Made by a program: the position numbers and the translations under genes. Below the pieces are notes generated by a model. It was not told the DNA's origin and did not search any database. It saw only the letters and a program-made list of their open reading frames with translations. A DNA stretch of 23,430 bases, from positions 1 through 23,430 of IMG/VR virus record IMGVR_UViG_2671181100_000007, one strand, 5' to 3'. How positions within the stretch are numbered: position 1 is the stretch's first letter; every line of letters begins with the position of its first letter. Positions 1 to 11,251 of the stretch are shown here, piece by piece. This DNA comes from a virus (taxonomy: Duplodnaviria > Heunggongvirae > Uroviricota > Caudoviricetes).

Positions 1-933
1 ATGGACAACGACAAAATTGATCAACACAGCGACGAAATTGAAGTTGAGAGCGAAGAAAAAGAGCGCGGCAAAAAAATAGAAATAGATGAAGACCGACTCC
101 CCTCCCGGGCGATGGCAATTCATGAGCATATCCGCCAGGATGGTGAAAAAGAGCTGGAACGCGACGCAATGGCGCTACTGTGGTCAGCCATTGCGGCGGG
201 TCTGTCGATGGGCGCTTCGTTACTGGCAAAAGGGATATTTCATGTCGAACTGGAAGGTGTGCCGGGCAGCTTCTTACTGGAGAATCTCGGTTATACCTTT
301 GGTTTTATTATCGTCATAATGGCCCGCCAGCAATTATTTACCGAAAACACCGTGACTGCGGTACTACCCGTCATGCAAAAACCGACAATGAGCAACGTTG
401 GCTTACTTATGCGGTTATGGGGAGTCGTGCTGCTGGGTAATATTCTCGGGACTGGTATTGCTGCGTGGGCATTTGAATATATGCCTATCTTCAATGAAGA
501 AACTCGCGATGCATTTGTCAAAATCGGCATGGATGTGATGAAGAACACCCCCAGCGAGATGTTTGCCAACGCGATCATTTCCGGCTGGCTGATCGCCACT
601 ATGGTATGGATGTTTCCTGCAGCAGGTGCGGCAAAGATTGTGGTGATTATATTGATGACCTGGCTTATTGCCCTGGGTGACACCACCCATATCGTGGTCG
701 GTTCTGTTGAAATCCTCTATCTGGTGTTTAACGGTACGCTGCACTGGAGCGATTTCATCTGGCCCTTCGCACTACCTACTTTAGCGGGGAACATCTGCGG
801 CGGCACCTTTATCTTCGCGTTAATGAGTCATGCACAGATTCGTAACGACATGAGCAACAAGCGTAAAGCAGAAGCACGCCAAAAAGCAGAACGTGCGGAA
901 AACATTAAGAAAAATGATAAAAACCCGGCATAA
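1..933 (+). CDS. yfdC: Formate/nitrite transporter (FNT) family inner-membrane protein, YfdC-like; host gene flanking the island
   Basis: Complete 310-aa ORF from ATG at nt 1 to TAA at 931-933; several hydrophobic helical stretches; translation matches my recollection of E. coli YfdC; composition looks like core enterobacterial DNA. Confidence 0.85.
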   Translation: MDNDKIDQHSDEIEVESEEKERGKKIEIDEDRLPSRAMAIHEHIRQDGEKELERDAMALLWSAIAAGLSMGASLLAKGIFHVELEGVPGSFLLENLGYTFGFIIVIMARQQLFTENTVTAVLPVMQKPTMSNVGLLMRLWGVVLLGNILGTGIAAWAFEYMPIFNEETRDAFVKIGMDVMKNTPSEMFANAIISGWLIATMVWMFPAAGAAKIVVIILMTWLIALGDTTHIVVGSVEILYLVFNGTLHWSDFIWPFALPTLAGNICGGTFIFALMSHAQIRNDMSNKRKAEARQKAERAENIKKNDKNPA

Positions 934-1005
934 ATGGCGAGGGTTTAAGCAATCGAGCGGCAGCGTACTTACCCCGCACTCCATTAGCGGGTATACTCAT
1001 GCCGC

Positions 1006-1027
1006 ATTGTCCTCTTAGTTAAATGGA
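1006..1027 (+). pseudogene. argW: 5' fragment (22 nt) of a tRNA-Arg gene (argW-like); cloverleaf cannot be completed, so not a functional tRNA
   Basis: GTCCTCTTAGTTAAATGGATAT matches the remembered 5' end of argW (acceptor stem plus D-arm start), about 70 bp after the yfdC stop as in K-12. The following sequence (GGTTATAAAACAATC...) cannot pair as D-stem, anticodon or T-arm. Confidence 0.45.
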
Positions 1028-1125
1028 TATGGTTATAAAACAATCTAATATATTGTTTTAAAAAGAGAAACATCAAAATAAATCACTTTCATTGTACTCG
1101 TTTATGTACACACAATCCGTTGACT

Positions 1126-1518
1126 TTATATGACAGGGCATTCGTCATCAGTAGGCCAAGCTCGATTGATGACGAATGTCACCACCCCGACAACTGTAAC
1201 ATCATCCAAAGCCTCGCCTTCCAGAGCCTCACCGTCTCTTGTAATGAATGCCCGGCCCATAATTTTTGCAAAATCAGTGCCGCCGCCGTATTGAATTAAA
1301 ACGGTATCTCCTTGCTTTGGTTTACCGGAGACATCGACTACGGTGTAACCAGTTTCTGTCTGAACGAGCCTGGTATTTGGGCCGGTACCGCAGAGTTTAT
1401 CGACGGTCAGTCGTACTTCTACATAGTCTGCTGCTGGCGACGGAAATCCCACGTTATAGCCCTCCGTTCGGGTTGTATAACTGGAACGTGCGCTCATCGC
1501 CTTCCTGCGTTGAGACAT
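1126..1518 (-). CDS. UmuD/LexA-like S24 peptidase-fold protein, orphan (no umuC/polV gene downstream); start codon uncertain (ATG 1518 or 1497)
   Basis: 130-aa ORF with about 23 residues preceding GFPSPAADYVE, the hallmark block that follows the self-cleavage site in UmuD/LexA-family proteins. A Lys candidate is present (DFAKIM); the Ser nucleophile position appears to be Thr (TGYTV versus UmuD SGDSM). Confidence 0.5.
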   Translation of the reverse strand: MSQRRKAMSARSSYTTRTEGYNVGFPSPAADYVEVRLTVDKLCGTGPNTRLVQTETGYTVVDVSGKPKQGDTVLIQYGGGTDFAKIMGRAFITRDGEALEGEALDDVTVVGVVTFVINRAWPTDDECPVI

Positions 1519-1693
1519 CCCGGAATGTCGTCACATAGTGCTCTATCCACTGGTTAGCCTGGCGTGGCGACCAGTGCCAGTTAACTTTTGCGAGTTCCCG
1601 GATAAAACCGGACGTTGTCACGGTGCGGCGGCCATTAGGCTCAATGACCATTGCCTGACGCCAGGCTATTTCGATATCTGAGTTTCGCGGCAT
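1454..1693 (-). CDS. Hypothetical 79-aa protein, first ORF of the LexA-box-controlled cassette; overlaps the UmuD-like ORF by 65 nt in another frame (possible frameshifted single gene)
   Basis: ATG at 1693 preceded by a strong SD (AAGGAGGTG, 7-nt spacer); LexA box 2 nt upstream of the SD; no recognisable family. Confidence 0.5.
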   Translation of the reverse strand: MPRNSDIEIAWRQAMVIEPNGRRTVTTSGFIRELAKVNWHWSPRQANQWIEHYVTTFRDVSTQEGDERTFQLYNPNGGL

Positions 1694-1710
1694 AATTTCA
1701 CCTCCTTAAA

Positions 1711-1730
1711 TACTGTTTTTATATACAGTA
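1711..1730 (-). promoter_or_regulatory. LexA operator (SOS box) TACTGTTTTTATATACAGTA
   Basis: 20-bp palindrome with CTGT-N8-ACAG spacing, near-perfect to the E. coli LexA consensus TACTGTATATATATACAGTA; sits directly upstream of the RBS of the 1693 start and overlaps candidate -10 hexamers. Confidence 0.7.
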
Positions 1731-1802
1731 GATTTAATGAGGGATCTGATCAATACAGGTTACAGCTATCGATCAGACGCACCGACGCAACGCAATGATT
1801 TT

Positions 1803-1868
1803 AAGAGGCGGGCAGGTACTTGTAGGCTGTCTTCACCTTTCCCCTCATCACACTCCTGCTGACGATTG
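1803..1868. repeat. Decayed copy (D) of the serine-invertase 3'-terminal coding sequence; direct repeat of 4295-4365
   Basis: About 65 bp alignable to the invertase 3' end (GGTACTTGTAG..TGT.TTCAC); reverse strand translates ...VKTAYKYLPAS* versus invertase ...VKTIYKYLPAT*. Confidence 0.5.
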
Positions 1869-1903
1869 GACCTCCTTTCCTCATGGTGAAGTAGTAACCG
1901 CAT

Positions 1904-1932
1904 AAAAAAAGGCACCTATTAGGTGCCTTTTT
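1904..1932. terminator. Bidirectional rho-independent terminator
   Basis: A7 - GGCACCT ATT AGGTGCC - T5: perfect 7-bp GC-rich stem flanked by an A-run and a T-run. Confidence 0.7.
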
Positions 1933-2212
1933 AATATACTTTCTTAGCAACGAACCAAGAAAGCCCAAGCCTCGTAGCCATAATCATGCGCATCAAGGAC
2001 TTTTGCGGACTTCCCGCGAACCTTACGGTAGCGACAGAAGACCCAGCGGAATCCCTTCGGAGCCGCTTTTGAAACAACTGACTTTAAACCCATCCATAAA
2101 CACCTCCTTACCGAGAGAGATTTTTCCTTGAACCTACTCTCCCGAAGTGTTATGTTCGGGTTGCTTATAGAGAAGTTCACGGTGCGATGCCTCTTGGTAT
2201 CATCGCCTAGTT

Positions 2213-2250
2213 AAACCCTGATGGTTGGCGCCGTCAGGGTTTTACTTTTT
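2213..2250 (+). terminator. Intrinsic terminator hairpin (strong on plus strand, weak on minus strand just after the ImmA stop)
   Basis: AACCCTGA-N12-TCAGGGTT followed by TTTACTTTTTT on the plus strand. Confidence 0.5.
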
Positions 2251-2770
2251 TAATAACTGTTTTTGATAATCTGCTGCGTGTGCAGAAACCCCACACGCTT
2301 CAGCTATTTCTTCTACAGACATGCCTCTTAGTAGAGCTGCATGGCTGTAGGGGACGAGCAACTCTCCACTAAAGCACTTTGCCTGCCACTCGCTGCTTTC
2401 AAAAGCTCGAATTTCCACTCCTGGCTCAGCTCGAGCAAAAGCAATATTTTTATGCATTAGTAGATGTCCAATCTCATGAGCAACCGTCATACGATCACGC
2501 CCGTTTCCTTCATGAGCTCCCTCATAAACATCTTCACGAAGGATGATAAGCGAGTCCTGAGGCATAGTTAGCCCATGTGTCCCCCCCCATCTCCTTTTCA
2601 GAAGCTGTTTCAAACGAAAAGTTAGGTAAGATCTGCGGTAGTGCGAACTCCAGCATTTCAATTACGGGAAAATACAAATCATGTATTTTCAGCATCGAGC
2701 GTAATTTGCTTGTTAAACCACGCACCGCGTTGCGGCTTAAAGGTGGTACTCGATAATCTTGTCCGCTCAA
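2242..2770 (-). CDS. ImmA/IrrE-family zinc metallopeptidase (HEIGH motif), reading frame split at a C8/G8 homopolymer (2581-2588); intact only if the tract is 7 nt
   Basis: TTG start at 2770 with AGGAGG SD gives the N-terminal 78 codons; the C-terminal 139-codon ORF (2242-2661) contains TVAHEIGHLLMH (HExxH). The two frames join if one G is removed from the G8 run (minus-strand GAG ATG GGG GGG ACA CAT ... reads EMGGTHGLTMPQ). Confidence 0.7.
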
Positions 2771-2784
2771 ACAGAGCCTCCTAC

Positions 2785-3144
2785 TTATTGTTTTTTAGTT
2801 AACAATTCACGTAGACGTTTAAACTCATCATCACTTAATTCATCGAAATTACGTGCAAATGCCATCGCTACTTCACGAGCATTTTGATTCTTACCCGATA
2901 GATTAATCTCAACAGATTGTTGAGAATCACGCGCCGCTTTTGTTAACTCATCTCCTGCATGAACGCCTTCATTAGTGAAATAGCTAATGATACTTTTCAA
3001 TACAGGATCGGTTACAGCCCGCTTTCCTGTTTCAATTGCTGAGAGGTAAGACGAGGTCACGCCCATAGCATCAGCCATGCTTTTCAGCGTGACACCGACG
3101 TCTATACGTAATTTCCTTACTTTCTTACCAAACGGCGTTAACAT
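2785..3144 (-). CDS. XRE-family helix-turn-helix transcriptional regulator (ImmR-like partner of the metallopeptidase)
   Basis: 119 aa; N-terminal block VRKLRIDVGVTLKSMADAMGVTSSYLSAIETGKR fits the Cro/C1-type HTH pattern; ATG at 3144 with AGAGG SD; stop 12 nt upstream of the ImmA start (operon). Confidence 0.8.
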   Translation of the reverse strand: MLTPFGKKVRKLRIDVGVTLKSMADAMGVTSSYLSAIETGKRAVTDPVLKSIISYFTNEGVHAGDELTKAARDSQQSVEINLSGKNQNAREVAMAFARNFDELSDDEFKRLRELLTKKQ

Positions 3145-3520
3145 ATTTTTGCCTCTCTAATGTGCGTGAGAGTCAGGTACAACTCGACTCTGAGTGCAAG
3201 ATAACAAGCCGCAGATGAAAAATCAACTGATTTCTGTTAATTTTTGCATCGAGCTTTAGTTCATCAATGTAGACAGATGATAGTTCATATTGTTCTACTT
3301 AGCTTGCCAGAGAATGCTAAAAGTACTTGCGATATCCCATTACTCATTGATGTATATAGATACAAGTACCTTGCGACATCGGAAATGGAGCAGCTTCAGC
3401 GTTATGAAAGCTGCTCCACGGGATTTCTGGGGGCGTATAATCAAGGCTCTGAAGTTATAGCAAATTGCTCATCTGAGGGCTCTGGCATACAGTTCGCAGG
3501 TGAGCAAACTTAACCGGCTG

Positions 3521-3568
3521 GAAAATATTTATAAATCGTCTTCACCCCCTCCTATTACATCGGCTACC
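3521..3568. repeat. Decayed copy (A) of the invertase 3'-end sequence
   Basis: AAATCGTCTTCACCCC...ACATCGGC; reverse strand reads ..VADVIGGGEDDL*; about 80% identical to copy B. Confidence 0.5.
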
Positions 3569-3638
3569 GACCCAATGTTTTAACTGCTCAGACCAGAAAT
3601 ATCTGGAAGCTTTAGGCATCTTCTTGGAAGATAGATGA

Positions 3639-3712
3639 GCGCAAAGACGCACACAGCAATGATGTTATGTAGTATTTTCCCCTTGAGTGTGCCTGCTCAA
3701 GGGGATTTTTTA
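3639..3712 (+). repeat. IR2 left copy (~74 bp), inverted copy of 7724-7798; contains terminator hairpin 3678-3711 (TCCCCTTGAG-N8-CTCAAGGGGA + T6)
   Basis: Aligns base-for-base with the reverse complement of 7724-7798 with about 4 mismatches; hairpin followed by TTTTTT on the plus strand. Confidence 0.65.
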
Positions 3713-3728
3713 TCGCCGTATTGTACTG

Positions 3729-3780
3729 GCAAATATTAGTAAATCGTCTTCACCCCACGCCTGTCACATCGGCCACACGC
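3729..3780. repeat. Decayed copy (B) of the invertase 3'-end sequence, abutting the stop of the recombinase-like fragment
   Basis: CACGCCTGTCACATCGGCCAC matches the invertase 3' coding sequence CACGCCTGTCACATCAGCCAC; reverse strand reads ..VADVTGVG* and, one frame over, VKTIY*. Confidence 0.55.
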
Positions 3781-3794
3781 GGCTGGACAGGCGG

Positions 3795-4217
3795 TTAGTC
3801 CGGTATGTTTCTCGCGCTACTACTGCTTACGTTAACGTCTGGTAATGATCTAGCGGCGCGACGTAAAGCGGCGTTGAAAGCAATTATAGTGACCGGCCGG
3901 CGTTGGTACTTCACACGGTTAGAATGGCTCTGAAATAAAAAAACATCTTCTGGATAGCGTTCTCTTCTACGAGCAATGATCCCCTCCACTGGAGGGGTTG
4001 ATTCAACACGTAGCTCTTTCAGGTGATCCTGTTTTCGTATCAGTATCAAGCCATCATCAATATCATCATATCGAATACTCAGCAGCCTTCCAGCGCTTAA
4101 ACCTGTGTGAAAAATTAACGCCCACAAGTCTGCCCATGTATCCGAGATGGAAACAAGATTGCTGTTAATAGTTAAAAATTGTTCAAAACTTATTGTTTTC
4201 TTACCGTTCACGAACAA
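3795..4217 (-). pseudogene. Tyrosine-recombinase-like fragment (FimB/FimE/Xer-type catalytic-domain N-terminal half; lacks the HxxR and Tyr region); TTG start, no SD
   Basis: 140-aa ORF with HTGLSAGRLLSIRYDDIDDGLILIRKQ resembling the first conserved box of tyrosine recombinases (TGxRxSELxxLxxxDID); ends before any H-x-x-R ... Y motif. Confidence 0.4.
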
Positions 4218-4294
4218 ACCAAACTGTTTTCAAAGCTGAATGAATTGATTAAGCCAAACGTAACATATCAGGAAAAGTAGTGAAATCTTTGTCT

Positions 4295-4842
4295 TCAAGT
4301 CGCCGGGAGGTACTTGTAGATTGTTTTCACGTCCACGCCTGTCACATCAGCCACCTGCTGCCGGGTAGCGCCAGTACCCAACATCCTGCGGCATCGCTCC
4401 ACAACCTCAGTGGTCATTACCCGCCGGCGGCCACCAATACACCCTGCTCTCTCGCCGCCACCAGGCCTGCGCGGGTCCTCTCCACAATCAGCTCTCGTTC
4501 CATCTCTACCAGCGCGCTCATGACGTGGAAGAAGAAGCGGCCGGCGGCCGTGCTGGTATCGATGCTATCGGTCAGGCTTCGGAAATTTACCCCGCGGGCC
4601 TGCAGCTCCGAGACCAGAGTGATTAAGTCGCGCACGCTGCGCCCCAGCCGATCCCGTTTCCAGACCACCAGCACATCGCCCGGGCGGAGCCGCCGTAAGG
4701 CGCGCTTTAACCCTGGCCGCCGGGCATTTTTCCCGCTGGCCATATCCTCAAAAACCAGCTCACATTCTGCGCGGAGCAGCGCGTTTTTCTGTAAATCGAG
4801 GTTTTGATCCCCGGTGGATACCCTCGCATAGCCAATCAGCAC
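4295..4842 (-). CDS. Serine DNA invertase (Gin/Pin/Hin/Cin family); frameshifted near 4436-4440 (catalytic domain ORF 4417-4842; C-terminal HTH continues in another frame to TGA at 4295-4297)
   Basis: GTG start with AGGAG SD; MLIGYARVSTGDQNLDLQ...VVWKRDRLGRS...SLTDSIDTSTAAGRFFFHVMSALVEMEREL is near-collinear with Mu Gin as recalled, including the catalytic Ser in RVSTGDQ. The shifted frame after codon ~135 reads IGGRRRVMTTEVVERCRRMLGTGATRQQVADVTGVDVKTIYKYLPAT (HTH domain). Confidence 0.85.
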
Positions 4843-4885
4843 TATCTAACTCCTTGAAATAGCTGATTGTAAAAAGCCACGGCCA

Positions 4886-4939
4886 TTCGCTCAAACCCTC
4901 GTTTGAGCGAACGCCTTTTTTGGAGCAAAAAACATGGCC
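4886..4939. repeat. Left inverted repeat (54 bp) containing a 26-bp gix/hix-like crossover site TTCGCTCAAACC-CT-CGTTTGAGCGAA (4886-4911), plus the RBS and ATGGCC start of the SGNH tail-fibre gene
   Basis: 53/54 identical to the reverse complement of 11198-11251; site has the Hin/Gin-type architecture (12-bp imperfect inverted half-sites with AAACC/GGTTT cores around a 2-bp centre). Confidence 0.75.
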
Positions 4940-6880
4940 TTTAACCCGGAGCTGGGGAGCACGTCTCCCGCTGTGTTGCTCGATAACGCCGAGCGCCTGG
5001 ATAAGCTGGTCAATGGGGATGCGGCCACCGTTCCCGACCGGGCCGGACAACCGCTGGACTCCTGGCGTCTTATGCTGCAGACCTTCGCTGCTGTTGTCGA
5101 AAATACCCGCCAGAACCTGATCCCACTTGGCAAGCAATACCAGAGTGTGGAAGAGGCTCAGGCTGATATTGCCAGTATTCCAGAAGGTGCCACCACCTAT
5201 GCACGCAGTCCGGATGATTCTGCTCTGGCGATCGAATACCGAAATGTCTCCGGGACGCTGACGGAAACCGGGCGCAGGATGCCATCACAGAGCTCTGTCG
5301 ACGCAGTTATCCAGTTTATCGATGAGTTTATTGCCAGTGGGGCTGTCAGTGGTGACTTCTTCCCTTTCTTTGTCGATGGGGCCGGGAACGTGCCTGTGTA
5401 CTGGGATAACGGTTTTGCGGTTTCCCGGATTGCCGCATCGTTGTATCAGATGATCTATGAGGATGTTCATGCGCGGCTGGGGGATGCGTTGAATGTGCAG
5501 GTAACAGGGGTTTCCCCTCTGTTTTTCCCGTTATTCATGGACAGCGCCGGCAATGTACCGGTGTACTGGAATGGTGGGCTGGATGCGTCGGCAATTGCGA
5601 CGGGGCTGCTGGAAAAAATATGGGCTTATATCAACGATATCATCGCCAGCGCGCTTAACCAGAATGTCCCTCTGGTTTCCCCTGGTTTTGTACCAGGGAT
5701 GATGGATGCCGCCGGAAACGTCCCGTTCTGGTTCCAGGATGGCGAGCTTGATGCGACGGGCATCGGGCCAAACATCAGGGGAATTTTTGCAAGATGGTAT
5801 CAGCGGCGTATGTACACCGCTGCTTACAACATTCCTCTGCATACCGACGGGCGAACTCTGTGGCGCTGGAAAGCGAAGAAAGCTCAGCTCAAAGCTGGCC
5901 TTGCAACCCGGCCACACTTCATGCTGACGGGTGACAGCTGGACGCAGAATAACGAACTGGCGACCGCTATCGCCGGGCTGCTGCATGATGATTATGGTGA
6001 TGCCGGTCTTGGCTGGCGCACGGTTAACTACGGAGCGGCACGCGATGGCTCGAATATCAACCGCTCTGCAGGGTGGAATTTGTATGACTCATCGCCGACA
6101 AGTGGTGCGCCGCTGTACGGCTGCGGAATTGATGGTCAGTCAGTCAATACGACCATGGCGACCGACTATTTCAGGGTGACGAATGTCCGCTGCACGGACT
6201 ACCGTATTTACTACCAGGATTTGAACGGGCGTTTCCAGTACGGCTACGACGCTGGCGGGATCACTCAGTGGACAGAGGTTGTCTGCGGGAATACCGGCAC
6301 GACAAAATCGGTGTTGCTGACAGGCATGGCCGACGAGGTCAGAACCATATACATCAAAACCGATGGCAACACGGGGCGTGTCGCTATCCACGGGTTTTAT
6401 CTGTGGCGCAGCGGCGTTGCGGGGTGTGTGATGAGCAAGGCGGGGAATTCCGGGATTCTTGCCGATCAGTTCCTGCTGTTCTCCGACAAAATCGCAGAGT
6501 ACCTGAGCACAATGCAGCCTGACGTGATTGCGATTGTCATCGGGAATAACGATTACAGGATTTCTGAATCGACAGCCACATTCCGTACTGCTCTGCAAAC
6601 GTACATTGCTGCCTGTCGCGCCGTGCTCCCTGATGTGAGCTTTATTCTGATGGCACCACCCCGCACGAACGGAACAGCAATAACGCCCATCGTTGATTTC
6701 CGTGATGTCATGTACGACCTGTCACAGACGCTGAATGTCGAGTTTTTCAGCATCTATGACCTTTTCGACTCCTGGGCTGAAATGAACAGCCTCGGCTGCT
6801 TTCTCGATAACCTGCACCCGAATGCTACGGGCAGCAACCTGGTCGCAACGTCACTCTACAATGCACTGATTAAAGGCTAA
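4934..6880 (+). CDS. Tail fibre/tailspike protein (648 aa): shared N-terminal anchor domain, three tandem ~55-aa repeats, C-terminal SGNH/GDSL hydrolase (esterase) domain
   Basis: N-terminal ~115 aa homologous to the N-terminus of the 1113-aa fibre. Repeats FPFFVDGAGNVPVYWDNG / FPLFMDSAGNVPVYWNGG / VPGMMDAAGNVPFWFQDG. SGNH blocks: MLTGDSWTQ (GDS), VIGNNDY (GxND), DNLHPN (DxxH). Confidence 0.8.
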   Translation: MAFNPELGSTSPAVLLDNAERLDKLVNGDAATVPDRAGQPLDSWRLMLQTFAAVVENTRQNLIPLGKQYQSVEEAQADIASIPEGATTYARSPDDSALAIEYRNVSGTLTETGRRMPSQSSVDAVIQFIDEFIASGAVSGDFFPFFVDGAGNVPVYWDNGFAVSRIAASLYQMIYEDVHARLGDALNVQVTGVSPLFFPLFMDSAGNVPVYWNGGLDASAIATGLLEKIWAYINDIIASALNQNVPLVSPGFVPGMMDAAGNVPFWFQDGELDATGIGPNIRGIFARWYQRRMYTAAYNIPLHTDGRTLWRWKAKKAQLKAGLATRPHFMLTGDSWTQNNELATAIAGLLHDDYGDAGLGWRTVNYGAARDGSNINRSAGWNLYDSSPTSGAPLYGCGIDGQSVNTTMATDYFRVTNVRCTDYRIYYQDLNGRFQYGYDAGGITQWTEVVCGNTGTTKSVLLTGMADEVRTIYIKTDGNTGRVAIHGFYLWRSGVAGCVMSKAGNSGILADQFLLFSDKIAEYLSTMQPDVIAIVIGNNDYRISESTATFRTALQTYIAACRAVLPDVSFILMAPPRTNGTAITPIVDFRDVMYDLSQTLNVEFFSIYDLFDSWAEMNSLGCFLDNLHPNATGSNLVATSLYNALIKG

Positions 6881-7861: not shown

Positions 7862-10800
7862 CTAACCCTGGTTGTAAAAAAGCCACAAATCAGACAACGT
7901 TGACGCCACAAAACTGATCTCTGACAGCGTGTCTCCCGCAGCATTCGTGCCGTCGAATCCAAAGAACCGTTTAGGGAAGCCAGGCTTTGGCCCGTACTGC
8001 GTTTTCAGTTTATCCAGCAGACTGCCCGCTGCCGATAACGCTGATGGCCGGTCTGAAAAAAACAGCGGCAGCAGCGCAAAGGTGATGGTATTGGCAGCAC
8101 CCCGGCGGCTTTCGGAAATGCAAAAATCCACCTCCTTAAACGCCCCCATTCCGCTGGTCGCGGACAGAATGAAATTAACCAGGTCAAAGGCCGGTTTACG
8201 GTCCAGCAGTCTGCAGGCTAACAGATAGTTGTTAACGGCATAGCTGGCGTAGTGCAGGTACATCGCCCGGCTCGGGTATTCCGTCGCTGCATCCTGCAGA
8301 ATTCCTTCCGCCTTCATAAACTGGTTACGGTCCGTCAGCAGCGCCTCAACAGCATTAAAGGCTGTCAGGTAATGCCCGCTGCTGTCCTGCCCGGTATAAA
8401 TCCCCAGCGCCAGCGCCCGCAGTCCCGTGGCATTGGCATTACTGGCACCAATCCCGGTGGCTGTGCCAGCAATCTGAATACCGCCGTTGGCGGCCCAGTA
8501 CGTATAGACGGCATCCGCCAGGCTTTTTATCCCCGCCTTCAGCTCGGTAATTTTGGCCGGGTCACCCGCCTTCACCGCCATTTTGTAGAGCCACTCGTAA
8601 CAGGGAATGCTCAGACGCGACTGAAACTGCAGCCCCCACCACCCGCCGGTATACGCGGCCCCCGGATTGATGATGGAGCCCTTATCCAGTGCCATGTAAT
8701 TTTTAAAGGTGGCGTACACCGTATCCAGATCACCGGTGCCATAACGGGCCAGCAGGAAAATGTCCGCCGGTACACAATAAAATGCCGGATATTCCAGTTT
8801 ACCTTCACCGTTGATGAATGGCATGCCACCGCCATATTGGCGGGCGTCTTCCGATTTCCACCACTCCACTGAACCGCGAATATGGCAGGCCATTTTTTCC
8901 AGCAGATCCTGACGGATAACGCCCGCATAACCACAGTCACCCGCAAATCCTACCGGGCGGTTAAGTGCCTGGCTGTTAATGAGGGCATTCGTGGCATTCG
9001 ACGCCGCCGCTGTCACACTGTTATCGCAGTCAATCCACAGCTCGTGTGTCCAGGTCCAGCCTTTTTTCACCGGCCAGTTCAGGAACGAATAATCGGTAAT
9101 ATTCGATGAACCATACCGCCATCCGGCATCAATGCGGGTGTACGCTGCCCCGTCGGGTACCAGCGCCGTACCGCGAACCGGACGGTTTGGCCCGTAGGTT
9201 GGCCCGTCCCGGTGAACGTCTCCGTTTGCATAGACCAGCGCCGCCGTAAAGCGTTTACCCGTTGTGGCATCGGTAAAGTAAGCCAGCGCACGGGAGGTGT
9301 CGTAGGTGTACACTCCGTCGTTAAGCAGAAGTCGGGAGTACACCCCGAACAGCACGCCAACGGGAATATCCTGCATCGCCGTATTCATGACACGGACAGA
9401 AACCTTCCCGTTTCTGAACAGACGGTACCGGACTGTTGCCATCAGGGCGCCCTCTGCCAGCGTGTTTCCGGCCCGGTTACGTACCGTCATTTCCAGCTCG
9501 GTAAAGACCGGCCCTGTGTTCACCAGCCGGATGGATGCCCCCAGAATAAGCCGCTCATCCACCGCCACCCCGGCAACCACCTGGCTGTAATAGCAGCCGT
9601 GTGTAATGTTATGAACAATACCCGCCGGGTCGGTAATGCTGGTCAGGGCAAATCCCTGCTGGCGTAAAAAGGTGTATTTGTACCCGCTGACCGTCACGCT
9701 GTAACCGTCGGCAGTCTTCACCAGCTGCGGCCAGGAGCCAGAGGCCAGATCAGTCCGGCGACGGTTCCAGGCTTTCACCTCGTAATACTTCTGCGCACCA
9801 CTGGACAGCGAATCCAGAATGAAAACAGACCCTGCCGCCAGGGAGCCATCCGCGTGATAGCTGATATTCGACTTCTGACGCGGGTTAACATGGATATCAT
9901 CAGCAAACTGGGCATCAAACGTATTACCGTCAGTATCTGTCACCAGCAGGGCATCGGAATCCGGGACGTCACCGGGTGAGAAACTGACCCTGATTTCTAC
10001 CGGATAATTAACGTACCCGGCTGAAAGGGTATTTTTGACGTCCGTACCTTTTCGCTGATAGTTACCCACCCGCACCGATCGCACCACTTTACGCCGCCAG
10101 ACGGCATAACTTCCTGCCGGAAGGACAGCCAGACCGGATGTGGTGAAGCCTTCAGTGCTGACGGTATAGTCACCGGCAGGCAACAGGGCTTTGAAATAAT
10201 CCTCAAACCCGGTCTGTGCGATAGTGGTATCGTACGCCGCATATCCGGCAAACAGGCAATCCGGAGCAATAGTTTTCAGGTAGTCTCCCACCGTGGCGGC
10301 AGTAAAGCCCGCAGCAGTCAGCTCTGCCAGGGTGACCACAAACTGAATGGCATTCGCAATTGCCGTACCCGAAATGGACTTCCTCGTCACCGACGTGACC
10401 AGTCCGGCCTGAGCGGGGGCGAATTTCCCGGTTAAGTCCAGCGCGATATAGTTTGAACCGGCCACCGGGACGCCGAAGCCAGCAGGCAGGTCATAGCGCA
10501 CCCGGACCAGCGTTGCGGTGGTTTCCAGAATGCCCACATACTTCAGGTCCCGGAACCGGAAGAGGCGATAGGCTGACCAGAATTTTCCCTGAGCGTACTG
10601 CGTCTTTGTTCCCGGCAGTACAAAGGCCATCACTTCAGAACCCGCTGAAGAAAATACCAGCCGACTGTAAACCGTGTTCACATCCGACGTTGTCGCCAGG
10701 GTACGCAGTTCAATTACTGAATCTTCCGGTAGCATCAGCGCAGGGTCGTCCAGCAGCTTTAACCCTGTCAGATCCTGGTAGTCGCCATATTGTCGCTTAA

Positions 10801-11203
10801 TACCTTCCCGGTCTGTCAGCGTCGCTGTATATGCCAGCCCCGCTTCAACCCCTTCCTGCGAGAGCATTTTCCGCCCCGTGGCCGTTAGTGTCCCTGCCAC
10901 GTTCATATACTCTGTAGCCAGCGCGCTGCCGTCCTGGCTGCGCACGTAGGTTGTGGCGTTCACAGGGATATTCGCGATATCTGCCTGCGCTGCCGTCAGG
11001 GTCATGTACTGCTTACTGAGCGGGATGATGTTCTGCCGAATTTCGTCATTCTTTGCCATCATCTGGCGCCAGGTATCGAGCGGTTCGCCTGCGCGGTCGT
11101 TAACCGTTCCGGCCGGACCGTTAACCAGCTCGTCAGCGCGCTTGACGTTATCCAGGAATATTTCAGGCGTCGTCGTTCCCAAAGGCGGGTTAAGTTCGGC
11201 CAT
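7862..11203 (-). CDS. Tail fibre/tailspike protein (1113 aa) with shared N-terminal anchor domain and large unassigned C-terminal region (candidate receptor-binding or polysaccharide-degrading domain); the cassette currently in the expressed orientation
   Basis: ATGGCC start inside the right IR, 23 bp after the gix-like site; same strand as the upstream tail operon; N-terminal ~115 aa homologous to the 4934 ORF. Confidence 0.8.
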   Translation of the reverse strand: MAELNPPLGTTTPEIFLDNVKRADELVNGPAGTVNDRAGEPLDTWRQMMAKNDEIRQNIIPLSKQYMTLTAAQADIANIPVNATTYVRSQDGSALATEYMNVAGTLTATGRKMLSQEGVEAGLAYTATLTDREGIKRQYGDYQDLTGLKLLDDPALMLPEDSVIELRTLATTSDVNTVYSRLVFSSAGSEVMAFVLPGTKTQYAQGKFWSAYRLFRFRDLKYVGILETTATLVRVRYDLPAGFGVPVAGSNYIALDLTGKFAPAQAGLVTSVTRKSISGTAIANAIQFVVTLAELTAAGFTAATVGDYLKTIAPDCLFAGYAAYDTTIAQTGFEDYFKALLPAGDYTVSTEGFTTSGLAVLPAGSYAVWRRKVVRSVRVGNYQRKGTDVKNTLSAGYVNYPVEIRVSFSPGDVPDSDALLVTDTDGNTFDAQFADDIHVNPRQKSNISYHADGSLAAGSVFILDSLSSGAQKYYEVKAWNRRRTDLASGSWPQLVKTADGYSVTVSGYKYTFLRQQGFALTSITDPAGIVHNITHGCYYSQVVAGVAVDERLILGASIRLVNTGPVFTELEMTVRNRAGNTLAEGALMATVRYRLFRNGKVSVRVMNTAMQDIPVGVLFGVYSRLLLNDGVYTYDTSRALAYFTDATTGKRFTAALVYANGDVHRDGPTYGPNRPVRGTALVPDGAAYTRIDAGWRYGSSNITDYSFLNWPVKKGWTWTHELWIDCDNSVTAAASNATNALINSQALNRPVGFAGDCGYAGVIRQDLLEKMACHIRGSVEWWKSEDARQYGGGMPFINGEGKLEYPAFYCVPADIFLLARYGTGDLDTVYATFKNYMALDKGSIINPGAAYTGGWWGLQFQSRLSIPCYEWLYKMAVKAGDPAKITELKAGIKSLADAVYTYWAANGGIQIAGTATGIGASNANATGLRALALGIYTGQDSSGHYLTAFNAVEALLTDRNQFMKAEGILQDAATEYPSRAMYLHYASYAVNNYLLACRLLDRKPAFDLVNFILSATSGMGAFKEVDFCISESRRGAANTITFALLPLFFSDRPSALSAAGSLLDKLKTQYGPKPGFPKRFFGFDGTNAAGDTLSEISFVASTLSDLWLFYNQG

Positions 11204-11251
11204 GTTTTTTGCTCCAAAAAAGGCGTTCGCCCAAACGAGGGTTTGAGCGAA
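11198..11251. repeat. Right inverted repeat (54 bp) containing gix/hix-like site (11226-11251; minus strand TTCGCTCAAACC-CT-CGTTTGGGCGAA)
   Basis: Inverted copy of 4886-4939 with one mismatch; lies between the J-like gene stop (11280) and the fibre start (11203). Confidence 0.75.

Follow-up and report, generated by a model that had tools for sequence, protein, structure and literature searches.

What would a UmuD-like gene do in a prophage when it stands behind a LexA operator and no umuC gene follows it? The question is raised by a small cassette on the minus strand of a 23,430-nucleotide (nt) stretch of Caudoviricetes DNA (IMG/VR record IMGVR_UViG_2671181100_000007, positions 1 to 23,430), to which we refer as the window. 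The cassette consists of a gene for a 79-residue protein (gene 1) followed by a gene for a UmuD-like protein (gene 2); a preliminary description of the same DNA had read the two as overlapping open reading frames (ORFs). We favor, with a probability of about 0.55, the reading that the cassette forms a two-gene operon, intact and repressed by LexA, which occupies the att-proximal end of a siphovirus prophage in Escherichia coli argW, and that it supplies a HumD-like substitute for UmuD′ that would arm the host UmuC upon SOS induction.

The LexA operator of the cassette, TACTGTTTTTATATACAGTA, matches the gammaproteobacterial SOS box TACTG(TA)5CAGTA, which served as our reference, exactly in both arms (CTGT and ACAG) as well as in the TA flanks. 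The operator had been proposed as near-consensus and as lying upstream of the 79-residue ORF, and this is supported here, as it is unique in the window and conserved across relatives. For the comparison we used 74 loci (L-numbered below) that encode a relative of the 79-residue protein, taken from species-representative genomes. An exact CTGT-N8-ACAG lies 5′ of gene 1 in 65 of the 74, and the end of the box is 13–24 nt from the gene 1 start codon in 64 loci; the background of the same motif elsewhere in those loci is 0.004 per 100 nt. The consensus obtained from the related loci is TACTGTATATATATACAGTA, and the E. coli and phage relatives L001–L007 carry an identical LexA box. The consensus promoter scan called no promoter at the cassette, and the −35-like and −10 hexamers in Table 1 were therefore placed by conservation. 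Since one operator half would double as the −10 hexamer, bound LexA would block the promoter. The phiKO2 and P1 records also annotate LexA sites before their umuD-like genes. Together, these alignments indicate that the LexA box is real, a conserved putative operator over the inferred cassette promoter.

Gene 2 and its likeness to UmuD′

The GTG codon at 1452 sits 1 nt past the TAA of gene 1 (1456–1454) and has GGAGGG 7 nt ahead of it. Relatives point to this codon as the start of gene 2. Most called homologues begin with MGFPSPA, and in 34 loci the MGFPSPA start codon (ATG) is found −1 to +3 nt from the gene 1 stop, so that the relative frame of gene 1 and gene 2 varies from locus to locus. 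The open extension upstream of GTG 1452 is restricted to a close Klebsiella/E. coli clade, and its ATGs are by-products of gene 1 codons. In L006, which has a gene 2 of 94% identity and a gap of 2 nt, the extension is out of frame, and the tblastn match there consequently covers residues 23–130 only. PGAP calls of the cassette are inconsistent, with a 123-residue version or an upstream ATG in some genomes and with names that alternate between “hypothetical protein” and “S24/S26 family peptidase.” On comparative sequence grounds, gene 2 starts at GTG 1452 and does not overlap gene 1, and the 130-residue reading is an artefact of ORF extension.

The picture first given of the second ORF therefore stands in part: the frame is open from 1518 to 1126 and carries GFPSPAADYVE, and no umuC comes after it, as had been noted before, but the 65-nt overlap with gene 1 and the 23-residue lead before the motif come from an incidental ATG. 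A cleavable UmuD with a 23-residue leader, as had been envisaged, is not supported, as the cleavage-site Gly is where the protein begins, and in this it resembles UmuD′ and HumD. The suggestion of a latent fusion of ~200 residues is not supported either, given that the frames vary among relatives, that members of the gene 1 family are almost always ~79 residues long and that only 3 of its 182 clusters look fused. In these three (P0312, P0358, and P0272) the frame of gene 1 is not kept through its C-terminal half, and we judged them to be artefacts or pseudogenes.

The link of the second ORF to the S24 family, by contrast with its gene model, was correctly anticipated. Gene 2 matches PHROG 3469 (“UmuD-like protein”) at 4.7e-47, its family profile aligns with UmuD by hhalign over residues 25–99 with 96% probability, and a sequence search of the PDB gives UmuD at 4e-4. 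Furthermore, the top 24 Foldseek matches of the AlphaFold model of gene 2 are the C-terminal domains of UmuD′, LexA, and CI only, headed by the UmuD′ structures 1ay9 and 1umu (template-modeling (TM) score 0.57–0.62, E 3.5e-3). NCBIfam gives HumD and UmuD matches for gene 2, all of them sub-threshold, and in the HumD alignment residues 23–129 of the long ORF are paired with positions 1–128 of the model. PADLOC returned nothing for gene 2.

Both hhalign and MAFFT place a 12-residue deletion across the Ser60 loop of UmuD, whereas the pairwise phmmer alignment sets a Thr opposite Ser60, at a residue that is Ala in 81% of the family. The Thr first described at the position of the Ser nucleophile is thus alignment-dependent, appearing with phmmer only. 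By hhalign, a Lys of gene 2 lies opposite UmuD Lys98, which is adjacent to the catalytic Lys97 of UmuD; the gene 2 Lys is absent in phiES15. From its alignments, gene 2 is without a conserved Ser-Lys dyad and without a cleavable N-terminal segment, and it is predicted to be protease-dead. Loss of the dyad is expected here because the protein would never need self-cleavage.

In a joint alignment of UmuD with P1 HumD, phiKO2 gp23, N15 gp26, HK140 gp28, and the mEp390 and phiES15 proteins, every phage protein begins MGFPSPAxD(Y/F), and the GFPSPAxDY arm, proximal to the cleavage site, is the best-conserved segment of gene 2. Most of the phage proteins, but not UmuD, also share an acidic C-terminal tail, ...DDCPV(I/M), from which those of HK140 and phiES15 deviate. 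Residues 98–108 of the gene 2 tail have a predicted local distance difference test score (pLDDT) below 50 and are disordered in the model, yet the Pro is 98% conserved, and this combination suggests a short binding motif. The gene 2 family as a whole is acidic, with a median isoelectric point (pI) of 4.4. Tail variants occur among the phage UmuD′ analogues and many chromosomal copies (also L008–L011), including ...DDCPVI, ...DDNPVI, ...RPTI, and in some ...DDTPF (window 1126–1158). The acidic tail is reminiscent of the C-terminal tip of SSB, DDDIPF.

Among known systems, P1 HumD (NF051876), phiKO2 gp23, and N15 gp26 are, like gene 2, phage-borne and placed behind a LexA box with no adjacent umuC, and they share with it the MGFPSPAxDYVE start at the position of UmuD Gly25, the S24 fold, and the acidic ...DDCPV(I/M) tail. 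HumD complements UmuD′ according to a note in the P1 record, and it is reported to replace UmuD′ functionally with the host UmuC. Gene 2 differs from this group in its length (108 as opposed to 127–129 residues), in the deletion over the Ser60 loop, in being ~32% identical to HumD and assigned to PHROG 3469, not 811, and in being preceded by the coupled 79-residue gene, which is absent from P1, N15, and phiKO2. The kind of cassette is thus already known, that of a HumD-type UmuD′ analogue, and the variant described here is a minimal, divergent UmuD′-like protein with a conserved partner gene. E. coli UmuD′ is the best structural match of gene 2 (1ay9, 1umu), has the identical GFPSPAADYVE, and is likewise acidic. 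Unlike UmuD′, the gene 2 protein would be made directly and not from a precursor cut with the help of RecA; it is without a conserved catalytic Ser/Lys, it carries the extra C-terminal tail, and its gene shares no operon with umuC.

Gene 1 and the genes that follow it

Gene 1, first described as strongly initiated, reads on the minus strand from 1693 to 1454 with AAGGAGG at 7 nt from its ATG. It belongs to PHROG 3893, in which no function is assigned; NCBI and UniRef name the family “DNA polymerase V,” with no polymerase or UmuD domain behind the label. Searches of Pfam, NCBIfam, and PADLOC gave no family match for gene 1, a PDB sequence profile search returned noise only, and a BFVD fold search recovered only its own family (K7P7N3). 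The predicted fold, H1-b1-H2-H3-b2-b3, is that of a winged helix. Another of the earlier suggestions, a regulator that joins an S24 fold to a new type of N-terminal domain, is not supported as a single protein, although a winged-helix protein of its own is predicted from gene 1. The gene 1 family has a median net charge of 0 and a median pI of 6.65, and its wing has invariant acidic residues. The family is small: a profile search of 1.84 billion representatives yielded 182 clusters at 50% identity, nearly all of 40–130 residues and nearly always of ~79. We also tried membership of the DinI/ImpC family and rejected it, as a DinI query never matches gene 1, which falls in PHROG 3893 instead, and finds separate dinI genes in L004, L008, L009, L014, L015, and L017.

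A UmuD′ analogue, umuC, or umuDC lies downstream of gene 1 in 60 of the 74 species-level loci. Directly after gene 1 there is a short UmuD′-like gene of the window type in 32 loci (counting L065, where the match covers the first 30 residues only), a HumD-type gene of 125–129 residues in 13, a full-length umuC overlapping the gene 1 stop (TGATG) in 8, umuC remnants in 4, and a complete umuD-umuC in 3. The eight loci with gene 1 and umuC are from Pantoea and relatives (L032, L040, L045–L048, L062, and L075; ~2960–4800) and form LexA-box operons with a umuC of 420 residues. In seven of them (not L040), umuC is followed by a core protein of the window type without the GFPSPA arm; the umuC and core-protein genes overlap at ATGA in L062, and a prophage integrase comes next in L045. 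This order and composition of a polymerase V operon, gene 1-umuC-core, may be undescribed. In L055 (Candidatus Pantoea symbiotica, 2961–4984), gene 1 is followed by a umuD of the ordinary cleavable kind and by umuC, with a single LexA box 5′ of gene 1. The flanks of L055 encode a ~350-residue protein with a signal-peptide-like N terminus and a multi-pass membrane protein, nothing obviously phage-like, which suggests a chromosomal three-gene umu operon. From these gene orders, gene 1 is linked to polymerase V genes in phages and, as it seems, outside them. The linkage is apparently a new finding, and literature searches turned up no study of the gene 1 family or of its connection with polymerase V.

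A small gene before UmuD-like and UmuC-like genes, under SOS control, is also present in three-gene mutagenesis operons such as impCAB of plasmid TP110 (reference 46 of PMC11541004). ImpC is DinI-like. The order small gene-umuD-umuC is the same in L055; the difference is that gene 1 is not DinI-like by the DinI query, belongs to a different PHROG, and is a predicted winged helix. A further parallel is offered by Acinetobacter UmuDAb with the small co-repressor DdrR, which is reported as unique to Acinetobacter (PMC11332147). The likeness consists in a UmuD-family protein with a partner of ~80 residues in the DNA-damage response, and the difference in that UmuDAb has retained a DNA-binding extension at its N terminus and cleaves itself. 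Furthermore, umuDAb and ddrR are divergently transcribed. We found no sequence link between DdrR and gene 1, and an hhalign comparison with the N-terminal domain of LexA detected no similarity to gene 1.

Prophage setting, distribution, and adjoining genes

The first 1030 nt of the window are 99.9–100% identical to E. coli chromosomes and include yfdC (bases 1–933). In prophage-free E. coli the matching stretch is annotated as yfdC and tRNA-Arg, and identity ends at 1030. The argW stub reported earlier beside the cassette is confirmed as 22 nt of the tRNA gene, and ARAGORN finds no complete tRNA in the window; an intact argW, if there is any, must sit at the other prophage end, beyond the window. 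Past the junction, a siphovirus prophage that reads on the minus strand fills the remaining window, with a head protease/major head gene, tape measure, J-like tip protein, tail fibers, and a short accessory region, and the cassette is its final element before the bacterial junction. The terminator search gave no intrinsic terminator in the stretch from gene 2 to the argW stub, and an Rfam scan of positions 1–5000 gave nothing near threshold within the cassette.

Table 1. Features of the cassette and its surroundings, in window coordinates
Feature	Position	Strand	Basis
argW (tRNA-Arg) 5′ stub, 22 nt; prophage/chromosome junction	1009–1030	+	identity to prophage-free E. coli ends at 1030
Gene 2, 108 residues, GTG start, (M)GFPSPAADYVE...DDECPVI	1126–1452	−	comparative start data; family and fold matches
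Open stretch in frame with gene 2 and 5′ of its start, with ATGs at 1518 and 1497; judged untranslated as gene 2	1453–1518	−	in close relatives only
Gene 1, 79 residues, predicted winged helix, PHROG 3893	1454–1693	−	ORF; model-predicted fold
Shine-Dalgarno GGAGGG of gene 2, inside the Gly-Gly codons ending gene 1	1460–1465	−	sequence; G-rich equivalent in relatives
Shine-Dalgarno AAGGAGG of gene 1, ATG 7 nt downstream	1701–1707	−	sequence reading
LexA operator TACTGTTTTTATATACAGTA	1711–1730	not strand-specific	sole match in the window, even at 2 mismatches
Putative −10 hexamer TACTGT, equal to operator half 1730–1725	1725–1730	−	conservation
−35-like hexamer TTGATC	1748–1753	−	conserved TTGAT(C) 17 nt 5′ of TACTGT in box-anchored alignment of loci
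Bidirectional hairpin terminator, insulating the cassette from upstream accessory genes	1906–1932	both	

Both genes are under purifying selection, with ratios of nonsynonymous to synonymous substitution rates (dN/dS) against relatives of 0.11–0.25 for gene 1 and 0.09–0.16 for gene 2. These values, together with the conservation of the pair in viable phages, argue against a decayed umuDC operon, one of the origins proposed at first. In phages mEp390 and HK140 the gene pair lies directly before attP, and a divergent dinI shares the intergenic region of the cassette, with a LexA box there in mEp390. In phiES15 the pair comes after a tail-fiber gene at the record end, an equivalent tail-fiber-distal position. 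The cassette is present in 83 of 5426 complete E. coli genomes (~1.5%) and occupies more than one integration site in this species (yfdC/argW and zinT-yodB); many Klebsiella prophages carry it as well. In the copy of E. coli HS, gene 1 is frameshifted.

A second putative DNA-damage-responsive pair adjoins the cassette on the minus strand (2242–3144). It comprises an XRE-type helix-turn-helix protein (2785–3144, minus strand; PADLOC capH, 1.9e-9) and an ImmA/CapP-like metalloprotease with HEIGH (PADLOC capP, 1.3e-11). A frameshift at eight consecutive C (~2581–2589) splits the metalloprotease into the overlapping ORFs 2534–2770 and 2242–2661; the gene could be a pseudogene, or the shift could come from an error in sequencing or from a tract prone to slippage. 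Between the terminator at 1906–1932 and a structured stretch (region 1899–2250) there is a conserved small ORF (1944–2102, minus strand; PHROG 33859). The structured stretch contains a plus-strand terminator (2213–2242) and matches the model of the P22 sar antisense RNA weakly, below threshold (2181–2247, E 0.29).

Elsewhere in the window, a 54-nt inverted repeat that is 98% complementary (4886–4939 and 11198–11251) spans the ribosome-binding site and the initial codons of each of two tail-fiber genes in opposite orientation (4934–6880, plus strand; 7862–11203, minus strand), which have common N-terminal PHROG matches. The 6.3-kb tail-fiber segment looks like an invertible host-range switch. 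Relatives have a DNA invertase near this segment; the window has only a 140-residue integrase-like ORF (3795–4217).

Proposed role and competing explanations

In an undamaged cell, LexA bound to the box over the −10/start region would keep the operon off. Upon DNA damage, LexA would be cleaved and one short transcript made, from which the two genes would presumably be translated in a coupled manner, as TAA and GTG are 1 nt apart. The gene 2 product would begin where RecA-mediated cleavage leaves UmuD and, starting at the cleavage-site Gly, would need no activation step. It would then join host UmuC to provide polymerase V-type lesion bypass and mutagenesis at SOS onset, and early bypass would help to replicate damaged prophage and host DNA. 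The pairing of gene 2 with host UmuC is most likely by analogy to P1 HumD. Gene 1 may act with or on the gene 2/UmuC polymerase, and its recurrence in operons with UmuD′ analogues, umuC, and umuDC suggests a polymerase accessory or regulator. Tentatively, and with less confidence than we place in the favored reading, gene 1 might be a third part of the polymerase V-type translesion systems of Enterobacterales that has so far escaped notice, or a regulator dedicated to them, as it stands under a putative SOS operator, appears to be coupled in translation to whichever polymerase V gene comes next (UmuD′ analogue, umuC, or umuD), and travels in phages with a minimal UmuD′ predicted to be protease-dead. 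The cassette would then be a portable two-thirds of a polymerase V variant that is completed by host UmuC.

Several observations weigh against a HumD-like substitute for UmuD′. The host umuC lies beyond the window. Gene 2 scores 36.1 bits (E 5.5e-9) against the NCBIfam HumD model (NF051876), far below its cutoff of 120 bits, and Pfam Peptidase_S24 (PF00717) does not match gene 2 even at E ≤ 1. The protein is ~29% identical to UmuD with the 12-residue deletion, and its AlphaFold model is of moderate confidence (pLDDT 72.5; TM ~0.6). In 14 of the 74 loci gene 1 is alone, with nothing polymerase V-like within 80 nt, a count that includes at least two loci (L043 and L073) where an MGF start just past the gene 1 stop (truncated in L073) is kept and was missed by the search. 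Finally, P1, N15, and phiKO2 have HumD-type genes without gene 1. Given these last two observations, the two genes are not obligate partners, and gene 1 would be accessory.

An alternative that we consider unlikely, and that survives best, is a damper or decoy of the SOS response. The uncleavable UmuD′-like protein, with or without gene 1, would fill the RecA filament groove or heterodimerise with host UmuD/UmuD′, and would thereby modulate the cleavage of LexA, CI, or UmuD, or block polymerase V in a DinI-like manner. Indeed, UmuD, LexA, CI, and DinI bind common elements of the RecA filament groove (PMC9945995). In mEp390, HK140, phiKO2, and some chromosomal loci, the LexA-box region also has a dinI homologue transcribed divergently from it, in agreement with such a role, as is the GFPSPAxDY arm, most conserved although cleavage would never occur. 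However, HumD, with the same N terminus and tail, complements UmuD′ according to the P1 record, and the Pantoea operons pair the gene 2 family with full umuC, for which a polymerase subunit fits better than an inhibitor.

Less probable again is a prophage induction switch, with gene 1 as an SOS-induced winged-helix regulator or antirepressor and gene 2 forming heterodimers with a CI-type repressor through the S24 C-terminal domain of the latter. LexA-controlled antirepressors distant from the immunity region are known in the Gifsy phages, 186, and N15. Such a role is consistent with the predicted winged helix of gene 1 and with its presence alone behind a LexA box in 14 loci; the N15 antirepressor is cited in PMC9043618. 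On the other hand, mEp390 has, in addition to the cassette, a 218-residue LexA-family (S24) repressor of its own, which should respond to RecA directly, thus weakening the case for a separate switch. Gene 1 is also found 5′ of a chromosomal-looking umuDC and translationally coupled to umuC, and its family is not basic.

The versions put forward in the preliminary description (a self-cleaving UmuD-like protein of ~130 residues, a frameshift-split or programmed-frameshift protein of ~200 residues, or a decaying umuDC remnant) are highly improbable, as the frame open from ATG 1518, the 123-residue PGAP call in some genomes, the one-base change that would join both frames, and the frameshifted gene 1 of E. 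coli HS are outweighed by the MGFPSPA starts at gaps of −1 to +3 nt in varying relative frame, the loss of the upstream extension in L006 despite a 94% identical gene 2, the lack of a conserved Ser-Lys dyad for cleavage, the out-of-frame C-terminal half of gene 1 in the 3 of 182 clusters that seem fused, and dN/dS of 0.09–0.25.

The analysis corrects the gene model of the cassette and flags the name “DNA polymerase V” of the 79-residue protein as uninformative. The gene 1 partner tracks polymerase V genes across genera, which makes it a testable candidate accessory factor. In enterobacteria, damage-induced mutations arise mainly through polymerase V, whose action is normally delayed by the slow RecA-dependent processing of UmuD. 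If gene 2 is indeed a HumD-like substitute, a ready-processed UmuD′ analogue under LexA control could shorten this delay, and the lysogen would experience more mutagenesis and greater survival of damaged DNA, including under SOS-inducing antibiotics.

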